Origin: Clostridia bacterium
GTDB lineage: Bacteria > Bacillota > Clostridia > Oscillospirales > CAG-272
Direction of reading: 5' to 3'
NCBI GenBank assembly: GCA_017501545.1
Contig: JAFVWS010000044.1
Location: 10,240-74,239, forward strand
DNA: 64,000 bases
Part shown: in pieces, positions 3,332-31,787 of the stretch
How the letters are laid out: every line of letters starts with the position of its first letter
How positions within the stretch are numbered: position 1 is the first letter of the stretch
Notes under the pieces: model-generated
Seen by the model: only the letters and a program-made list of their open reading frames with translations
Database searches by the model: none
Told to the model about the DNA's origin: nothing
Made by a program: the position numbers and the translations under genes

Positions 3332-3696
3332 GCGTGTTATCCTTAACGGAAAACTTGAAAGCTCTTTCAAATCTTGTTGAGAGCCAGCATCACATTTGTA
3401 TACACAATTCAGTTGGGCAGAAGCCCAAGCAACCCCACTAACAACAGAAAAGAGAAGATTCGTTTTTAAGCGAGTATTCCTTTCCCTTTGTCTGTTAAGT
3501 GATATGCTGACTAAAGCCAGCGTGATATTTTCGCTTTGCGAAAGTGATATTGAAGCCTTATGGCTTCAGTGATATTCTTTTCGCCATAAACTTGCGAAGC
3601 AAATATCACTCGGCACAAGCCGAATAACACTGCGTAGCAATATAGTTCGCCGTGTGCGAATAGAACTGGCGTGATACTCCGTTAAGAGTATCACGC
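3332..3696 (+). repeat. 'Comb' repeat element copy 1 (core AGTGATAT(T)/(A)ATATCACT), MITE/REP-like
   Basis: Four forward and several inverted core words separated by mini-hairpins. Ends in the perfect hairpin GCGTGATACTC-CGTTAA-GAGTATCACGC (3669-3696). The left end 3332-3350 is a 16/19 inverted match to it. Confidence 0.8.
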
Positions 3697-6010: not shown

Positions 6011-6670
6011 ATGATAACTTACAAGGAAATAAAAGCCAACGAGGCGATAAAGGCTTATATTAAAAAGGCAGATGAGTCGCTTAACGCCCTTGGCTTTACC
6101 GAGCATTCCTTTGCACACGTTGGCTTGGTTGCCAATCGCGCTGAATATATTCTTACTACCCTTGGATATGACGAGCATACGGTTGAGCTTGTAAAAATTG
6201 CATCTCACCTACACGATATTGGTAATATTGTAAACAGGCGTGAGCATTCTCAAAGTGGTGCTGTAATGGCGTTTCGAATACTTGATAAGCTTGATATGAC
6301 GCCAGATGACATTGCAACCGTTGTAACTGCCATAGGCAACCATGACGAGGGCGAGGGAGAGGCAGTAAACGAGGTTGCTGCGGCATTAATTCTTGCTGAC
6401 AAGAGTGACGTTAGACGTACAAGAGTAAGAAACACCGATATGACCAAGTTTGATATTCATGACCGTGTTAACTACTCTGTTTATGAGTCCGACATTTCAA
6501 TAAACAGCGAAAAAACAAAAATAATTCTAAAGCTTAAGATTGATACTGAAATTAGCTCGGTTATGAACTATTTTGAGATTTTTCTTGGTAGAATGCTTAT
6601 GTGTAAAAGGGCGGCTACTAAGCTTGGGCTTGAATTTAGACTTATAATTAACGAGCAGGAGATAATATAA
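6011..6670 (+). CDS. HD-domain phosphohydrolase
   Basis: EHSFAH...LHDIGN...H...NHD...LADKSD metal-binding pattern. ATG at 6011 with AAGGAG RBS. Confidence 0.85.
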   Translation: MITYKEIKANEAIKAYIKKADESLNALGFTEHSFAHVGLVANRAEYILTTLGYDEHTVELVKIASHLHDIGNIVNRREHSQSGAVMAFRILDKLDMTPDDIATVVTAIGNHDEGEGEAVNEVAAALILADKSDVRRTRVRNTDMTKFDIHDRVNYSVYESDISINSEKTKIILKLKIDTEISSVMNYFEIFLGRMLMCKRAATKLGLEFRLIINEQEII

Positions 6671-12269: not shown

Positions 12270-12590
12270 GCGTGATACTCTTAACGGAGTATCACGCAAT
12301 CAAATCCGTCTTCGACGGGTGAAATCCACCTTAGGCGGATGAAATCGCTTTCGCGATGAAATCCTGCTTCGCAGGGCTGCAACCTGACGGATTTGATTTC
12401 ATCCAAGGGCTTGACCTTGGATTTCATCTGAGCAAAGCGAAGATTTCATCGTGGTGTAACCACGATTTCATTAAACCAACAAAAAAGAGAGAACGTTTCG
12501 GATAGACCGATTTGTTCTCTCTTTCTGCTTGTGTAGGGGTTCCCCGAAACGAATGTAATGAGCTTTGGGGGTTCACGTATATGGGCTTGA
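12270..12590 (-). repeat. 'Comb' repeat element copy 2 (core GATGAAATC/GATTTCATC), left end missing
   Basis: Same 28-nt hairpin (reverse complement at 12270-12297). Shares CAAGCAGAAAGAGAGAACAAA with copy 3. Abuts the GH95 stop codon. Confidence 0.8.
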
Positions 12591-26339: not shown

Positions 26340-29300
26340 ATGAAAAGGAAACTTGCACTGATTTTGTGTGTTGTTGCAGCTATTGCAATGATATTTACTC
26401 TTGCATCATGTGGCGAAGAGAAATGTGAACACACATATTCAGCTGATTGGTCATCCGATGAAAATGGTCACTGGAATGCAGCAACCTGTGGCTGTGAGGG
26501 CGAAATCAGCAACTACGGCATTCACGCCGATGAAAAAACTCTTGGCGAGGACGGAAAGCTTACAGCTGGTAAGGATGGTCTTTGTGACACATGCTCTTAC
26601 AAGCTTTGTGAGGAGCACAAATACGCTACAGAGTGGTCAACAAACGAAACAAATCACTGGAACGCTGCTACATGCGGATGCGACGTTAAGGACAACGACG
26701 CTAAGCACGTTGACGAAAACAAGGACGGCAACTGCGACGAATGTAAGTACGTAATCTGTGATCACTCACCAGTTGATGCTTGGTCAAGCGACGAAACATA
26801 CCACTGGAAAGAGACAGATTGCGAGGATTGCAACGTTGACGTTGCTCTTAAGGGTGAGCACGCTGATGAAAACGAAGACGGTCGTTGCGACACCTGTGGC
26901 TACGTTACAAGCTTTGACTACGTTTTAAAGAGCGTAATTGAGGGTCTTGATAGCGAGGCTTGGTTTGGCGTTAACTCTTCAGTAGTTCTTGAAAATGGTG
27001 AAGAGACATTTACAAAGGTGTTCGATAACTACACAGTAGTTAAGGACGCATTTGGCAACACAAAGTACTACTCATATTATGGCGAAAACGATGCAAATCT
27101 ATTTGTAGTATATGAAACTGATTATGGTACATTCAGAAACCTCGACGCTGAGGAAATTGAAGGCGTTGCAGCATACGAAATCGTATTCTACAAGGTTGTT
27201 GCTACAAACCACGAGGATATGATTAAGGGTCTTTATAGACTCGCTATGAATGGTAGCGTTGATGGTGATGGAGAACAAGATGGTTACTCATACGGTCTTG
27301 TTAACACAATTGATGAGGAAGCAGGAAAGTACTCATTTAAGTTCCTCTTTACAATCTACGAATCAGCTTATGAGGTAAGCGTTGAATTCGAGGTTGATGC
27401 TGAGGCAAACGCTGTTAAGAGCGCTACAATTACAATTGACCTCTACGACTTAGCAGACGTTACAATTGATGAAGAAAACCTTACATACACAGTTAATGAG
27501 GATGCTGAGGCAATCTCAACAAAGTATGAAGCTACACAAACATTTGGTGACCCAATGTCTTCAGAGGAAGCACCAAACCCACATCCAGCAAGCAAGTATA
27601 TAATTGACGACCTTAAGTTTGTTAACGAAGACACAAACGAGGAAATCGAGGAAGGCGACGTAGTTGAAATTCTTGCTGGCTATGAAAACAAGCTCAATCT
27701 TGTTCTTTCAGAGGATCTACTTGATCTTGCTGACTTCCAGCTCTTTGAGGTAACAACAGAGCTTACAAAGGGTGGAATGAACTATCCATTCTCACTTTAT
27801 GGCAATACAGCTGGCGAGTTCGCAGTTGAAATTTCAAACGGTCTTGACACACTTTCATTCACAATTAAGGTTTCATATGTTGCTCCTCAAACAATGAGCA
27901 CATTTGCTATCAATGTTGACTCAGGAACAGGCACATCTGAAAGTGAAGTGACAATGTATAATGGTCAATCACTTATGGTAAATGCAGTTGTTTCACAAGG
28001 CTGTGACCCAACATTTACAGCTGAGGTTACAGTAGGTAAGGACGCAGCAGTCTTAGCAAAAAATGAAATCGGCACATACACATTCAAGCCATTAATGGCT
28101 GGCGATTATGAAATTGAGCTTACATCAAGCGTAGCAAGCGACGTTACAGCAACTCTTAAGGTTACTGTTATCGACCCACCTACAATTGAAGAGGTTTTAG
28201 ACGGCGAGTACGAGGGTACATCCGCCAACAACTGGATTGATATCAATGCTGAGTTTGGCGCAGAAAGCACAGTTGTTATCACACTTGATGGCGAGATAAG
28301 AAGCTGGGACAATGAAACCATGACACAGGTAACAACAGACGTATCTGGTACTGCAACATATACATATGTATACAATGAAGAAACAGGCGCGCTTGCTCTT
28401 ACAAAGACAGAGGGCGATGATCTTATCGTTGAAGAGGTTTACGTTGAAAACTATAAGGTAGTAGTTAAATTGACAAACGACTTCCCATGCAAGCTTGAAA
28501 AGGTTGTAGAAGAACCAGAAACACCAGCTGGTAGCGCTACAGAGAGCCCAATTAAGGTAACAATGACTAACGCATACACATACTGCTATGATTACGCATT
28601 TACATTTGTAGCAGGTGAGGCTGGCACATACACATTCACAGTTCCTGTAGGTTTCGGCGTTTTTAGCCAAAAGGAATATGATGCATATGGTAACCCATAT
28701 GTTGATTTCCAAATGGATCAAGGTGGAACATTTACACTTGACCTTGATGCAGGTGAAAGCGTAGCGCTTCTCTTTGGTTCAAAAGAGGCTAAGGAATATG
28801 AGCTTGCATTCACATACTCAGCATCACAAGGTGGTGGAGATGTTGACGAGCCAGATACACCAGCTTCAGGTAGCGGTACACAGGCTGACCCATTCATTAT
28901 TACAGAATCTGGTAACTACGTAGCAGACTATGTAGGTGGCGGCTGGACAGTATTCACATGGTACCAATATACAGCAACAGCTGATGGCAATGTAGTATTT
29001 ACATATACAGGAAACGGAACTTACTGGTTGAGCTATGGTACAAATCCTGATGCTTTAGATGGAGTAGGAAGCACGGCAGTTGGCGGAGTTTATACAATTC
29101 CTGTAACTGCAGGCGACGTTCTATTCCTTGCAGTTCAAGAATACAACGGTACAGCTTGTGAAATTCCATTCACAATTGAACTTCCTGGCGCAGGCGCTGG
29201 TGAAGACGAAGAGCCAGAAACAACAGGTACAGCTCTTACAATCGGTAATAATAATATCGAAGGCACAGACATAACATACACATACACAGCAGATGCAGAT

Positions 29301-30635
29301 GGTAAGCTTTCACTTTCTTGTGGAAATGCTGTTATGGGCCCTGTTTCAATCACATGCACAGTAAATGGCAATGACGCTGGAGAAGTAGTTCTCGGTGGTG
29401 AAGCACTTGTTCTTGACCTTAAGTCAGGCGATAAGGTTGTTATCACAGTAACAGCATCAGGCTATGCAACATTAAATGCAGCCTGGGCAGGTGAGTCCAG
29501 CACAGGCAATGCTACACTTAATATGGGTAACACCTCAATTGAGGCTGCTGACGCAACATACGAGTATACAGCAAGCGCTGATGAAACTCTTGTTCTTTCG
29601 GTAGGTACAGCTGTTATGGGCCCTGTTACTGTAACATATTCAGTTAACGGTGGCGATGCAGTTACACTTGAGGCTAACGTTCCTGCAAACGTTGCACTTA
29701 CAGCAGGTGATAAGCTTGTAGTATCAGTAACAGCTACTGGTTATGCTACACTTGCAGTAACAGTTGCAGGTGGTGAGGCTGAAGAAGAGAAGAATGTGCT
29801 TGTTGTAGGTGAAAACACAGTAGTTATTGGTGAAGACCAAATAACCGATGGTGTTGATTATGAATTTACAGCAGGCGTTGAAGGTAACTATACAGTAACA
29901 GGTGACCTTCTTGCTATCTTCTTTGATGAAAACGGAACAAGACTTGGTGCTGGCATGGTTTCTCTTTCTGCTAACCAAAAGGTAACAGTTAAATTTGTTA
30001 ATATGGCAGAAGAGGCTGGCACATTCACAGTAACAGTAGTTGCTCCTTCAGCTGAAGAGGAAGAGCCAGAAGAGCCAGAGGTTGTAGACCCACAAGCTGA
30101 GCTTAAGGGACTTCTTAGCAACTACACATACAAGATTGGCGATTATAGCGTAGGCTTAACACAAAACTGGGAAACAGGCGTTTACTACATTAACGTAACA
30201 GATGCCGACTGGACAATAGACCTTGGCTTTACATATGAGCTAACAGATAATGGAGATGGCACATTTACAATTATAAACCTTGCAAGTTACGATATGGGAT
30301 ATGCTAGCGGTGCTGATCAAGTGGACGCTGTAAAGGCAGCTGTTGAGGGACAAAAGATTTCTGCTAATCTTACAAACAATGCTGTAAGAGGTTCTTATCA
30401 ACTTAATGGCTATCAATTAGGCTTGTCACGTAATACAGAAACAGGTGCATATGAGGCTAACATTTCTGATGACAGCATGACAACAGACCTTTACTTCACA
30501 TATGTAGCAACAGAAAATGAAGATGGTACATTCACAATCGCTCTTACTTACACACAAGTAGATTGGGAAGTTGGTTCAGACAAGGTTGAATCACTCCTTG
30601 CTATGGATTGGGTAGTAACTTTAGCAGCTGAATAA
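26340..30635 (+). CDS. 1431-aa modular surface lipoprotein
   Basis: Lipobox LASC, three His/Cys/DxxxDG repeats at the N-terminus, duplicated beta-rich modules and acidic linkers. Confidence 0.82.
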   Translation: MKRKLALILCVVAAIAMIFTLASCGEEKCEHTYSADWSSDENGHWNAATCGCEGEISNYGIHADEKTLGEDGKLTAGKDGLCDTCSYKLCEEHKYATEWSTNETNHWNAATCGCDVKDNDAKHVDENKDGNCDECKYVICDHSPVDAWSSDETYHWKETDCEDCNVDVALKGEHADENEDGRCDTCGYVTSFDYVLKSVIEGLDSEAWFGVNSSVVLENGEETFTKVFDNYTVVKDAFGNTKYYSYYGENDANLFVVYETDYGTFRNLDAEEIEGVAAYEIVFYKVVATNHEDMIKGLYRLAMNGSVDGDGEQDGYSYGLVNTIDEEAGKYSFKFLFTIYESAYEVSVEFEVDAEANAVKSATITIDLYDLADVTIDEENLTYTVNEDAEAISTKYEATQTFGDPMSSEEAPNPHPASKYIIDDLKFVNEDTNEEIEEGDVVEILAGYENKLNLVLSEDLLDLADFQLFEVTTELTKGGMNYPFSLYGNTAGEFAVEISNGLDTLSFTIKVSYVAPQTMSTFAINVDSGTGTSESEVTMYNGQSLMVNAVVSQGCDPTFTAEVTVGKDAAVLAKNEIGTYTFKPLMAGDYEIELTSSVASDVTATLKVTVIDPPTIEEVLDGEYEGTSANNWIDINAEFGAESTVVITLDGEIRSWDNETMTQVTTDVSGTATYTYVYNEETGALALTKTEGDDLIVEEVYVENYKVVVKLTNDFPCKLEKVVEEPETPAGSATESPIKVTMTNAYTYCYDYAFTFVAGEAGTYTFTVPVGFGVFSQKEYDAYGNPYVDFQMDQGGTFTLDLDAGESVALLFGSKEAKEYELAFTYSASQGGGDVDEPDTPASGSGTQADPFIITESGNYVADYVGGGWTVFTWYQYTATADGNVVFTYTGNGTYWLSYGTNPDALDGVGSTAVGGVYTIPVTAGDVLFLAVQEYNGTACEIPFTIELPGAGAGEDEEPETTGTALTIGNNNIEGTDITYTYTADADGKLSLSCGNAVMGPVSITCTVNGNDAGEVVLGGEALVLDLKSGDKVVITVTASGYATLNAAWAGESSTGNATLNMGNTSIEAADATYEYTASADETLVLSVGTAVMGPVTVTYSVNGGDAVTLEANVPANVALTAGDKLVVSVTATGYATLAVTVAGGEAEEEKNVLVVGENTVVIGEDQITDGVDYEFTAGVEGNYTVTGDLLAIFFDENGTRLGAGMVSLSANQKVTVKFVNMAEEAGTFTVTVVAPSAEEEEPEEPEVVDPQAELKGLLSNYTYKIGDYSVGLTQNWETGVYYINVTDADWTIDLGFTYELTDNGDGTFTIINLASYDMGYASGADQVDAVKAAVEGQKISANLTNNAVRGSYQLNGYQLGLSRNTETGAYEANISDDSMTTDLYFTYVATENEDGTFTIALTYTQVDWEVGSDKVESLLAMDWVVTLAAE

Positions 30636-30689
30636 TCAGTCGTTTAAGGAAATATCCTAAAACAATAAAAAAAGACACACCGAGGCAAT

Positions 30690-31039
30690 GGGTGATGTTC
30701 TTAGCGGAGAATTTGAAAAATACCGCTAAGTGCGAGCATCGCATTTGACTAGTCAAATACTTTATGGGCTAAGCCCAAACCCATATTACAAGCAGAAAGA
30801 GAGAACAAAACGGGGTAATCCGTAATGTCCTCTCTTTTCTGTTAGTGAAGTTTTCGCTACCGCGAAAGTGAAGTTGCTATGCAGTGAAGTTTGTGCTACG
30901 CACAAGTGAAGTTAAGTTTGCCCGCTTTGCCGAAGGCAAAACTTCACTATCCGTAGGATAACTTCACTTACGTAGTAAACTTCACTTGCCCGTAAGGGCA
31001 AACTTAGTTATGCGTGATACTCCGTTAAGAGTATCACGC
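30690..31039 (+). repeat. 'Comb' repeat element copy 3 (core AGTGAAGTT/AACTTCACT)
   Basis: AGTGAAGTT at 30844, 30867, 30883 and 30905; AACTTCACT at 30940, 30960 and 30978. Identical 28-nt hairpin at 31012-31039. The left end is an 18/23 inverted match to the right end. Confidence 0.85.
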
Positions 31040-31109
31040 AAACTCGGTGTGTTTTTATTTTCCTTGAGGAAAAGCTGTCGCTGTGCGACTGATGAGAAAT
31101 CAGAAAGCA

Positions 31110-31185
31110 TGTCACTCTGGAGCCTTGCGATAGAGTCTATATAAAGAGATTCTATCACTGCGCCTTGCTTCGTTCCAGAATGACA
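31110..31185. repeat. REP-like palindromic element (TGTCACTCTGGA...TCCAGAATGACA)
   Basis: 11/12 inverted termini and an inner GATAGAGTCT/AGATTCTATC stem. Confidence 0.6.
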
Positions 31186-31200
31186 ATTAGTGAAATAAAA

Positions 31201-31223
31201 AGGGGAGGCATATTGCCTCCCCT
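31201..31223 (-). terminator. Intrinsic terminator following the displaced kinase 3' end
   Basis: AGGGGAGGCA-tat-TGCCTCCCCT with a TTTTATTT tail on the minus strand. Confidence 0.8.
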
Positions 31224-31228
31224 ATAAA

Positions 31229-31390
31229 TTATTTATCATTTTCATCCCTTTGGGTTTTAAACTCAAACCAGAAGGTAAAGCCCTTGCCAAGCTCGCTGGA
31301 AACTCCAAAGCGTGAGCCGTGAAGGAGAAGAATGTTTTTTACAATGGATAGACCCAGCCCAGTGCCAAGCACAGCACGCTTATGCACCTT
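31229..31390 (-). pseudogene. Orphan 3' fragment of the histidine kinase gene
   Basis: 31257-31390 matches 31950-32083 ungapped at 126/134. Encodes KVHKRAVLG...KGFTFWFEFKTQRDENDK* with its own stop. Confidence 0.85.
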
Positions 31391-31787
31391 TATAGCCTCC
31401 ATCTGTCGAGGGAGGTGTCAACGGAGTTGACGGAGGGAGAGTGCTTTTAATTAATGCGTCAATATATATGCAAACGCCGTTGAAATTTTTATCAATTAAA
31501 TAGTTTGGAATCCTAATAACGGATAAATCCAATTCTTCAAGATCTTTTGTTCTTTCAGCGTCTTTAAGTAATTGCATTTCAGTATAATGTCCACTTCCGT
31601 CAAGCTCAATAACAAGCTTGGCCTTTGCGCAGTAAAAGTCTACAATATAATTGCCTAAAGGTTTTTGTCTTTGAAATCGAATAGGGTAACTTCTTAAAAA
31701 ATCATACCAAAGATGCTTTTCGTGACGTGTCATATTTTTACGGAGCTCTTTGGCAAGCGGAATGTTTGCTTTATTATAAGTCTTCAT
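31380..31787 (-). CDS. DUF559 (Vsr-like) endonuclease
   Basis: AKELRKNMT..E..LW..LR...F.RQ.P.G.YIVDFYC..AKLVIELDGSGH signature. The RBS (GAGGGAG) lies within the upstream repeat. Confidence 0.9.
   Translation of the reverse strand: MKTYNKANIPLAKELRKNMTRHEKHLWYDFLRSYPIRFQRQKPLGNYIVDFYCAKAKLVIELDGSGHYTEMQLLKDAERTKDLEELDLSVIRIPNYLIDKNFNGVCIYIDALIKSTLPPSTPLTPPSTDGGYKGA

Follow-up and report, generated by a model that had tools for sequence, protein, structure and literature searches.

The window analysed here is a stretch of 64,000 nt from a Clostridia bacterium of the CAG-272 lineage (assembly GCA_017501545.1, contig JAFVWS010000044.1, positions 10,240-74,239 of the forward strand), and the genome to which it belongs, hereafter G000, comprises 1.86 Mb in 49 contigs and is 94% complete. 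According to the list of open reading frames, a gene for a surface- or lipoprotein-like protein of 1431 amino acids occupies positions 26340-30635 on the plus strand, within a gene order (VWA, a 534-aa protein, the 1431-aa gene, DUF559 and HisKA) that recurs on two further contigs, L092 and L095. The terminator owned by this gene is split in two. An A-tract (30664-30674), evident from the sequence and from the inverted repeats I3 and I9, precedes the 5' stem half ACACACCGAG (30675-30684, plus strand); for transcription of the opposite strand this tract would act as the T-run, as in a bidirectional terminator design. The stem half is followed by a GCAA tetraloop (30685-30688, plus strand), and its partner CTCGGTGTGT with the T-run TTTTATTTT occupies positions 31043-31061 on the same strand; in full, the split terminator reads ...AATAAAAAAAG-ACACACCGAG-GCAATGGGTGATG...GTATCACGCAAA-CTCGGTGTGT-TTTTATTTT. 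A repeat finder reports complementary arms of 18 nt (30667-30684 and 31043-31060) with 358 nt between them, and the 411-nt region folds with -172 kcal/mol (z = -12), the two flanking halves forming its outermost helix. A preliminary description of this locus had placed both stem halves and the T-run at these positions, and the sequence and the repeat finder agree with it.

Between the halves lies a mobile element of 352 bp without an ORF, TGGGTGATG...GTATCACGCA (30689-31040, plus strand), the third copy of its kind in the window and referred to below as copy 3. Its left terminal inverted repeat, TGGGTGATGTTCTTAGCGGAGAAT (30689-30712, plus strand), starts a long hairpin that closes at GAGCATCGC-ATT. 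The right terminus is itself a hairpin and inverted repeat, TGCGTGATACTC-CGTTAA-GAGTATCACGCA (31011-31040, plus strand; inverted repeat I8), with a perfect stem of 12 bp (31011-31022 paired with 31029-31040) and an end that is conserved in all copies. The two termini are related to one another in that the left TGGGTGATGTTCTTAGCGGAG matches the reverse complement of the right end, TGCGTGATACTCTTAACGGAG; the repeat is imperfect and about 20 bp long, with approximately 19 of 24 positions matching. The first 150 nt or so (30689-30840, plus strand) fold into nested hairpins and constitute the best-conserved part of the element between species, with up to 98% identity. They are followed by a 'comb' (30841-31010) of short words split by mini-hairpins: four AGTGAAGTT (30844, 30867, 30883 and 30905) and three AACTTCACT (30940, 30960 and 30978), or seven words against 0.9 expected by chance in the window. 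These words, together with the closing AAGTTTGCCC/GGGCAAACTT helix, are all found where the preliminary description had located them. The right half of the comb (30936-31010, minus strand) matches the Rfam family Gut-1 (RF01706) with 53.0 bits, above the gathering score of 50, and a second match lies at 12297-12367 of the window; no other Rfam family was detected in the element, and a scan for promoters inside copy 3 returned no promoter-like site. In the filled site (31035-31061) the CACGC of the element can pair with GTGTG of the old stem ahead of the T-run, and this pairing (31035-31051) gives a weak, terminator-like substitute hairpin.

The empty allele and orthologous intact sites

The syntenic contig L095, which stems from another sample, carries the same hairpin unsplit, as ACACACCGAG-GCAA-CTCGGTGTGT at positions 6400-6424. 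In context it reads ...aaaaaaagACACACCGAG-GCAA-CTCGGTGTGTttttatttt, and over a longer stretch 3' of the gene ...AATAAAAAAAGACACACCGAG-GCAA-CTCGGTGTGTTTTTATTTTCCTTGAGG..., with the stem halves joined directly across the loop (GAG-GCAA-CTCGG) and the T-run in place. In-silico deletion of 30689-31042 from the window reproduces this empty allele, identical across 80 nt, and the flanks of the filled and the empty allele are 96-100% identical over 100-600 nt. The net insert is thus 354 nt, made up of the 352-bp element and a duplicated AA, one copy of which forms the last two bases of the tetraloop (30687-30688, plus strand) and the other of which follows the element (31041-31042, plus strand). The hairpin, complete in L095 with its 10-bp stem, GCAA tetraloop and T-run, therefore predates the element, which came (or left) as a discrete unit. 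L095 is an ENA contig and also encodes the closest homologue of the upstream protein (P0002, 76% identical over the last 432 residues); the filled allele recurs on a second contig, which encodes an identical upstream protein. At 1200 nt from the insertion site, identity between L095 and the window (29400-31650) falls to about 77% on the left and about 84% on the right; the filled and empty alleles differ as a recombination mosaic around the 3' end of the gene.

The comparison with L095 bears directly on two details of the preliminary description. Removal of the element does rebuild a 10-bp stem downstream of the 1431-aa gene, as had been predicted; the loop that it rebuilds is GCAA and not the GCAAA that had been proposed. 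The GCAA noted at both junctions is indeed present in the letters, yet it is not a 4-bp duplication: the left GCAA is the whole original loop, and the right one is composed of the CACGC-A end of the element and the duplicated AA. Both the empty allele and the offset scan described below rule out a target duplication of 3 or 4 bp, and the true duplication measures 2 bp.

Relatives of the element provide further intact sites. The elements of L037, L078 and L083, and less clearly that of L067, sit in terminators for which the orthologous positions of G000 are unsplit hairpins, for example AAAATCGACTGT-aaaaa-ACAGTCGATTTT on contig C6 of G000 as against AAAGCCGACTA|element|TAGTCGGCTTT in the relative; these four comparisons span a greater evolutionary distance than that with L095. 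When metagenome contigs were scanned at the protein level, the C-terminus encoded by the 1431-aa gene matched nothing. A search of 60 relatives with the flanking DNA matched the element alone, the flanks not being conserved between species.

The element family and its landing sites

G000 holds roughly 15-18 copies by BLAST and motif scans; 11 are complete, several run into a contig end, and three are one-ended or atypical. All have (N)GGGTGATGTTCTTAGCGGAG as their left end and CTCCGTTAAG..(A/T)CACGC(N) as their right end, two termini that are mutual inverted repeats and each lie in a hairpin; family-wide, the ends are GTGATGTTCTTAGCGGAG... and ...CTCCGTTAAG..CACGC. The centre is variable and is populated in G000 by different words, AGTGAAGTT in five copies (including copy 3), GTTATGA in another five and GATGAAATC in three. 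The terminal repeat is carried by 38 of 41 genomes of the genus, and a scan for the left end in one genome per species gave over 119 stretches, in MAGs of Clostridia from the ruminant and human gut (Oscillospiraceae, Christensenellaceae, Ca. Scatosoma, Faecousia). Element sizes range from 230 to 1360 bp across the family, which hence combines multiple dispersed copies with a filled/empty polymorphism.

Longer relatives carry cargo genes on the strand opposite to the orientation of the element. Within family ends we find a DMP19-like gene (L100), a lipoprotein gene and a PF05635 four-helix-bundle gene (L106), an XRE-type (XRE-HTH) membrane protein (L134), GNAT and DUF559 (L136), NUDIX and DUF559 (L160), DUF4299 (L170) and a RAYT-like gene (L105, with a broken copy in L127). 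Several of these belong to a sister sub-family with the right end ...CTCCGTTAAGGACAACAGAG (L100, L134, L136, L160, L170 and L138), whose members hold one or two passenger genes, including a 234-aa protein of no known kind beside the DMP19, XRE-HTH, GNAT and DUF559, NUDIX and DUF559, and DUF4299 cargoes; their sites are mostly split terminators with AA duplications. The sister type that ends in ...TTCTCCGTTAAGGACAACAGAG (...ACAGAG) possesses a clear inverted repeat of about 24 bp. Copy 1 of the window (3332-3696) has a hairpin of the right-end type at both ends and lies between GGGTGC and GCACCC, with a T-rich run after the latter; the dinucleotides on its two sides differ (AA and GA), and CGAA is repeated at both junctions.

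The comb can be related to one of these cargoes. Gut-1 is listed as an orphan small-RNA motif, and here it represents one arm of a two-armed word-and-hairpin array in mobile DNA. Such a two-armed array precedes each of the three genes of G000 that encode PF05635, the 23S rRNA intervening-sequence protein (C27:11853-12400, minus strand; C48:4470-5260, minus strand; C36:300-849, plus strand). The array on C27 is built from AGTGAAGTT, the word of copy 3, and the array on C48 from GTTATGA; both words also occur in gene-less short elements. Because the C27 array uses its word, copy 3 looks like a cassette that lacks the PF05635 gene and has kept the leader array, and the comb probably derives from the leader of a passenger gene, since lost, that encoded a PF05635 four-helix bundle. 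For the short copies built from GATGAAATC, the G000 assembly offers no partner gene.

The insertion sites were characterised for 70 complete copies, 33 from G000 and its relatives and an independent set of 37 from the one-genome-per-species scan. In 10 of the 11 complete copies of G000 the 20-nt flanks are mutually complementary and GC-rich, with an A-run before and a T-run after them, and the stems differ completely in sequence and length from site to site, which leaves shape as the sole shared feature of the target. Matched flanks in G000 form duplexes with a mean of -16.7 kcal/mol as opposed to -7.7 kcal/mol for mismatched pairs (permutation p<5e-5, 0 of 20,000 reaching the mean); overall, matched flanks lie at about -17 to -19 kcal/mol, compared with -7.7 for mismatched pairs and -6.0 for random genome positions. 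Among the set of 33, 91% pair at -14 kcal/mol or better, versus 1% of 3000 random positions with the same spacing and 3% of the mismatched pairs. Far from most other copies being devoid of complementary flanks, strong pairing is thus seen in 30 of the 33 copies and in 27 of the 37.

Within these hairpins the footprint is small and fixed. With the boundaries of the element set five bases ahead of GATG and one base beyond CACGC, 29 of 33 copies have the same dinucleotide on either side (permutation mean 15.9, maximum 26 in 100,000 trials), whereas no other offset exceeds 13; in the independent set they match in all 37, as AA in 30, TA in three, TT in two, and AT and AC in one each. The element therefore comes with a fixed target duplication of 2 bp in 66 of the 70 copies, mostly AA, as confirmed against a real empty site. 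The non-AA duplications (TA, AT, TT, AC) are equal on both sides and scattered over the element tree, which indicates that the duplication derives from the target. Deletion of the element and one duplicate in silico rebuilds a hairpin with the duplication inside its loop in 31 of 33 cases (loops of 3-9 nt, mostly 4-5) and one with its loop at the junction in 32 of 37.

All copies in G000 are situated 2-60 nt from the 3' end of a gene, the nearest 3' end being less clear for C4b. Four are in sense to the terminated gene, four antisense and three between convergent genes; insertion is independent of the direction of transcription just as it is of the stem sequence, and the occurrence of both orientations argues against a process at the RNA level. 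The same observations bear on the suggestion that the locus is a structured RNA gene, its flanks a covarying closing helix that doubles as its own terminator, with nothing inserted at all. Copy-specific complementary flanks do resemble the covariation of a closing helix, the fold is very stable (z = -12) and part of the element matches an Rfam 'RNA' family. Nonetheless, an exact empty allele exists in which a 4-nt loop caps the hairpin, asymmetric cases (e.g. C14b) have a T-run oriented with the neighbouring gene rather than with the element, and the DNA has terminal repeats and a 2-bp duplication with no promoter-like site; we give this reading practically no credence.

The loop dinucleotide adds a second layer of specificity. 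The duplication reads AA 50 times and TT twice, from which it follows that the orientation of the element follows the loop. AA/TT accounts for 79% of the duplications and for 41.6% of the loop dinucleotides in approximately 386 terminator-like hairpins of G000, which identifies shape as the main determinant and AA as a secondary, strand-specific preference. Could this distribution arise if insertion were random and copies in terminator loops merely survived selection because they are harmless? Intergenic space is scarce in a genome of 1.86 Mb, and the self-folding of the element would make loop insertions nearly neutral. Yet the 3-9-nt loops of some 386 terminators amount to a tiny share of the neutral intergenic DNA and hold about 90% of the 70 copies, and equally harmless sites, for instance downstream of terminators between convergent genes, are unused. 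An origin by selection alone is accordingly very improbable. The preliminary description had proposed insertion into terminator loops and structure-directed targeting; the empty allele, the flank pairing, the hairpins regained on excision and the unrelated stems bear this out, and structure-directed targeting by the family is strongly supported. The exact empty site, the terminal inverted repeats, the 2-bp duplication and the preference for AA sharpen that earlier reading.

The flank-to-flank helix persists in the minimum-free-energy fold of the filled site for every one of the 59 short copies. The predicted folds suggest that the terminator may still work in the filled site, with the element acting as a large self-contained 'loop': by folding on itself it would rejoin the stem halves just before the U-run, and the insertion would then be tolerated and termination may survive.

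The repeats also leave their mark on assemblies. Five contig ends of G000 fall within copies (C21, C26, C36, C37 and C45), and the Logan contigs L093, L094 and L219-L221, which carry the neighbouring genes, all break off within the element, some 80 nt beyond the stop codon. An exact-protein look-up of the neighbour of copy C14a yielded three contigs, each of which stops within the element and shows no empty allele. Short-read assemblies are systematically broken by the family.

Proposed target recognition and candidate mobilising enzymes

We consider it highly probable that copy 3 is a non-autonomous transposable element residing in a GCAA tetraloop and that its family inserts at the tips of inverted-repeat hairpins, for the most part those of intrinsic terminators. 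Recognition would act on a target that is either extruded as a hairpin or cruciform or folded into a hairpin while single-stranded, since in an ordinary double helix a palindrome of arbitrary sequence cannot be read by a protein; an additional preference would apply to AA on the strand that reads the element from its left to its right end. Inverted repeats and a fixed 2-bp duplication point, with moderate confidence, to a trans-acting transposase that cuts with a 2-bp stagger, and the most likely candidate would be an enzyme of the DDE type.

Searches for the source of such an enzyme covered several collections. No parent element with the same ends and a transposase was found in 80 genome loci, in the matches listed from the 41 genomes of the genus or in viral contigs; all plus/minus pairs of the terminal repeat among the matches listed from those 41 genomes lie 280-510 bp apart. 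Plasmid and phage collections likewise gave no match to a parent element, and the 29 viral matches comprise one short copy and 28 chance matches of 16-mers. The longest relatives (up to 1.36 kb) hold passenger genes only and no recognisable transposase, and the G000 assembly has no repeats longer than 710 bp. In the same assembly, 94% complete, no profile matches were obtained to RVT_1, rve, DDE_3, DDE_Tnp_1 (PF01609) or Resolvase (PF00239). Mobilisers of the IS30/IS3, IS630 and IS4/IS5/IS1182 types and a serine recombinase were discarded as their domains are absent from G000, as was a retro-element pairing an Avd-like protein with a reverse transcriptase, G000 having no reverse transcriptase. 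The RAYT-like Y1 genes co-occur poorly with the element, which makes them unlikely mobilisers.

The right end displays a pattern that a plain staggered cut does not predict, and which leaves some room for a guide-like or crossover mechanism. Across the right ends of 59 family members, the 3' terminal base pairs with the inner-foot base of the right hairpin in 43 copies (p<5e-5), and the next two inner-foot bases covary only partly with the duplication; more often than chance would give, the inner-foot trinucleotide can pair with the terminal base and the adjoining duplication, as TTA/TAA in 25 copies, TAT/ATA in five and GTA/TAC in two. A guide-like triplet was also sought at the left end, where ATT is invariant and does not covary.

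One process that could account for such a foot is single-strand transposition by an HUH/Y1 enzyme (IS200-IS605- or RAYT-like) that recognises the terminal hairpins in single-stranded DNA; the right 'duplicate' would then be the 3' cleavage site of the element, paired to an internal guide and pasted 3' of a matching loop dinucleotide. The trinucleotide complementarity resembles the layout of guide and cleavage site in IS608, both element ends are hairpins, and the empty allele fits as well as it does under a staggered cut. Moreover, the sole transposase-like genes in G000 are three Y1_Tnp/RAYT-like genes of about 175 aa (C22:13807-14331, minus strand; C18:18431-18925, plus strand; C21:29599-30102, plus strand), and L105 holds such a gene inside family ends, L127 a broken copy. 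Against this stand true inverted repeats that reach beyond the palindrome, most clearly in the sister type with the ...ACAGAG end, a left internal triplet that never covaries with the target, and a type of duplication that switches between very close relatives of the element. RAYT-like genes are furthermore absent from six element-rich genomes of 94-97% completeness (G012, G021, G023, G028, G034 and G038) and carry GTAGGGG-type REP hairpins of another repeat family. On balance we regard HUH/Y1 transposition as unlikely. Relatives contain as many as nine copies of the RAYT-like genes, many of them interrupted by stops or truncated at contig ends, and the copy in L105 contains a REP-like hairpin, GTAGGGGCG...CGCCC.

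Site-specific recombination with a 2-bp crossover, as by a serine recombinase of the IS607 kind, would instead have a circle bearing one dinucleotide meet an identical dinucleotide in the loop. Two identical flanking bases in 66 of the 70 copies are what this would leave behind, and the 3' terminal base is A in nine of nine copies with TA or TT, a hint at heritability. A crossover matched to the donor would however resist change, and nearest neighbours in the tree of elements carry different dinucleotides; a gene with a Resolvase domain is also absent from G000, and we judge such recombination to be distinctly unlikely.

An enzyme outside the recognised transposases, either a host factor or one of the recurrent small passenger proteins, that integrates DNA at extruded hairpin tips could be the mover and could unite the family with Gut-1 and with the PF05635-bearing intervening sequences at helix tips of 23S rRNA genes. 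We put this forward tentatively and as a doubtful proposition; if true, all three would form one class of hairpin-tip-invading elements.

Significance and comparison with known systems

Transposons that choose their targets by the shape of the DNA are rare and poorly understood. The transposable elements described here offer dozens of precisely resolved natural insertions with intact stems and a 2-bp footprint in the loop, and hence clean data on the recognition of hairpin tips. They lend the orphan Gut-1 motif a genomic context, and they portray the terminators of gut Clostridia as safe landing sites for small cassettes (DUF559, PF05635, GNAT, NUDIX, DMP19, XRE). For annotation they carry a warning: split terminators and 350-nt 'structured RNAs' in the 3' UTRs of such genomes are mobile DNA, the repeats of which make Logan contigs stop shortly after the flanking genes.

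Among known systems, IS1272 and TnSha1 of the staphylococci (IS1182 family) target DNA secondary structures, often confirmed terminator hairpins, and delete or replace part of the hairpin with no target duplication (Furi et al. 2016, PMC4923244; Wan et al. 2017, PMC5678879). The present family resembles them in its secondary-structure targets, the lack of a primary-sequence consensus and the use of both orientations. It departs from them in leaving both stem halves intact, inserting into the loop and duplicating 2 bp; IS1272 and TnSha1 moreover encode or borrow a known DDE transposase, whereas G000 is without a DDE_Tnp_1 gene. Like IS1397 and ISKpn1, the family inserts specifically into extragenic palindromes that form hairpins, and IS1397 does so in the loop of the palindromic unit with a duplication of 3-4 bp. 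These REP-palindrome-targeting insertion sequences of the IS3 family recognise one conserved REP family (Tobes and Pareja 2006, PMC1525189). In contrast, the stems invaded here are unrelated in sequence, the duplication is 2 bp and G000 possesses no rve-type transposase.

In their general build the elements are akin to bacterial MITEs and mobile insertion cassettes (Correia, RUP, MIC231), which are short and multi-copy, have terminal inverted repeats and a short duplication and lack a transposase, and the longer members of which carry passenger genes as do the longer relatives described above. They differ in that the sets searched yielded no parent insertion sequence sharing their ends, and in their choice of a hairpin loop over a short sequence such as TA. 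The IS30 family shows 2-3-bp duplications and a preference for palindromic targets, its transposases carry the rve domain, and IS1630 targets inverted repeats of variable sequence and duplicates the whole inverted repeat. The present elements do not duplicate the inverted repeat, and rve is absent from G000. IS200/IS605 or REPIN-RAYT systems have neither inverted repeats nor a duplication, their hairpin ends being handled by a Y1 HUH enzyme. Traits of these systems are there in the form of hairpin ends and Y1-like genes, yet the family has inverted repeats and a repeated dinucleotide, and many element-rich genomes lack the Y1-like genes. IS607-like serine elements would be compatible with the 2-bp identity taken alone and are set apart by the absence of PF00239 from G000.

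Terminator-associated group II introns (class C) and DGR retrohoming, which rely on a reverse transcriptase and insert in the sense orientation only, differ from the family in that G000 has no RVT_1, both orientations occur and Rfam returns no intron match. The PF05635 23S rRNA intervening sequences, found at the tip of an rRNA helix, share with copy 3 a resemblance of design only, the site here being the terminator of a protein-coding gene and the element lacking an ORF. In the literature searched we found no report of a Clostridia cassette family that inserts into loops and duplicates 2 bp, nor of Gut-1 in mobile DNA. With regard to its type, the family falls among the structure-targeting transposable elements, a kind already known.
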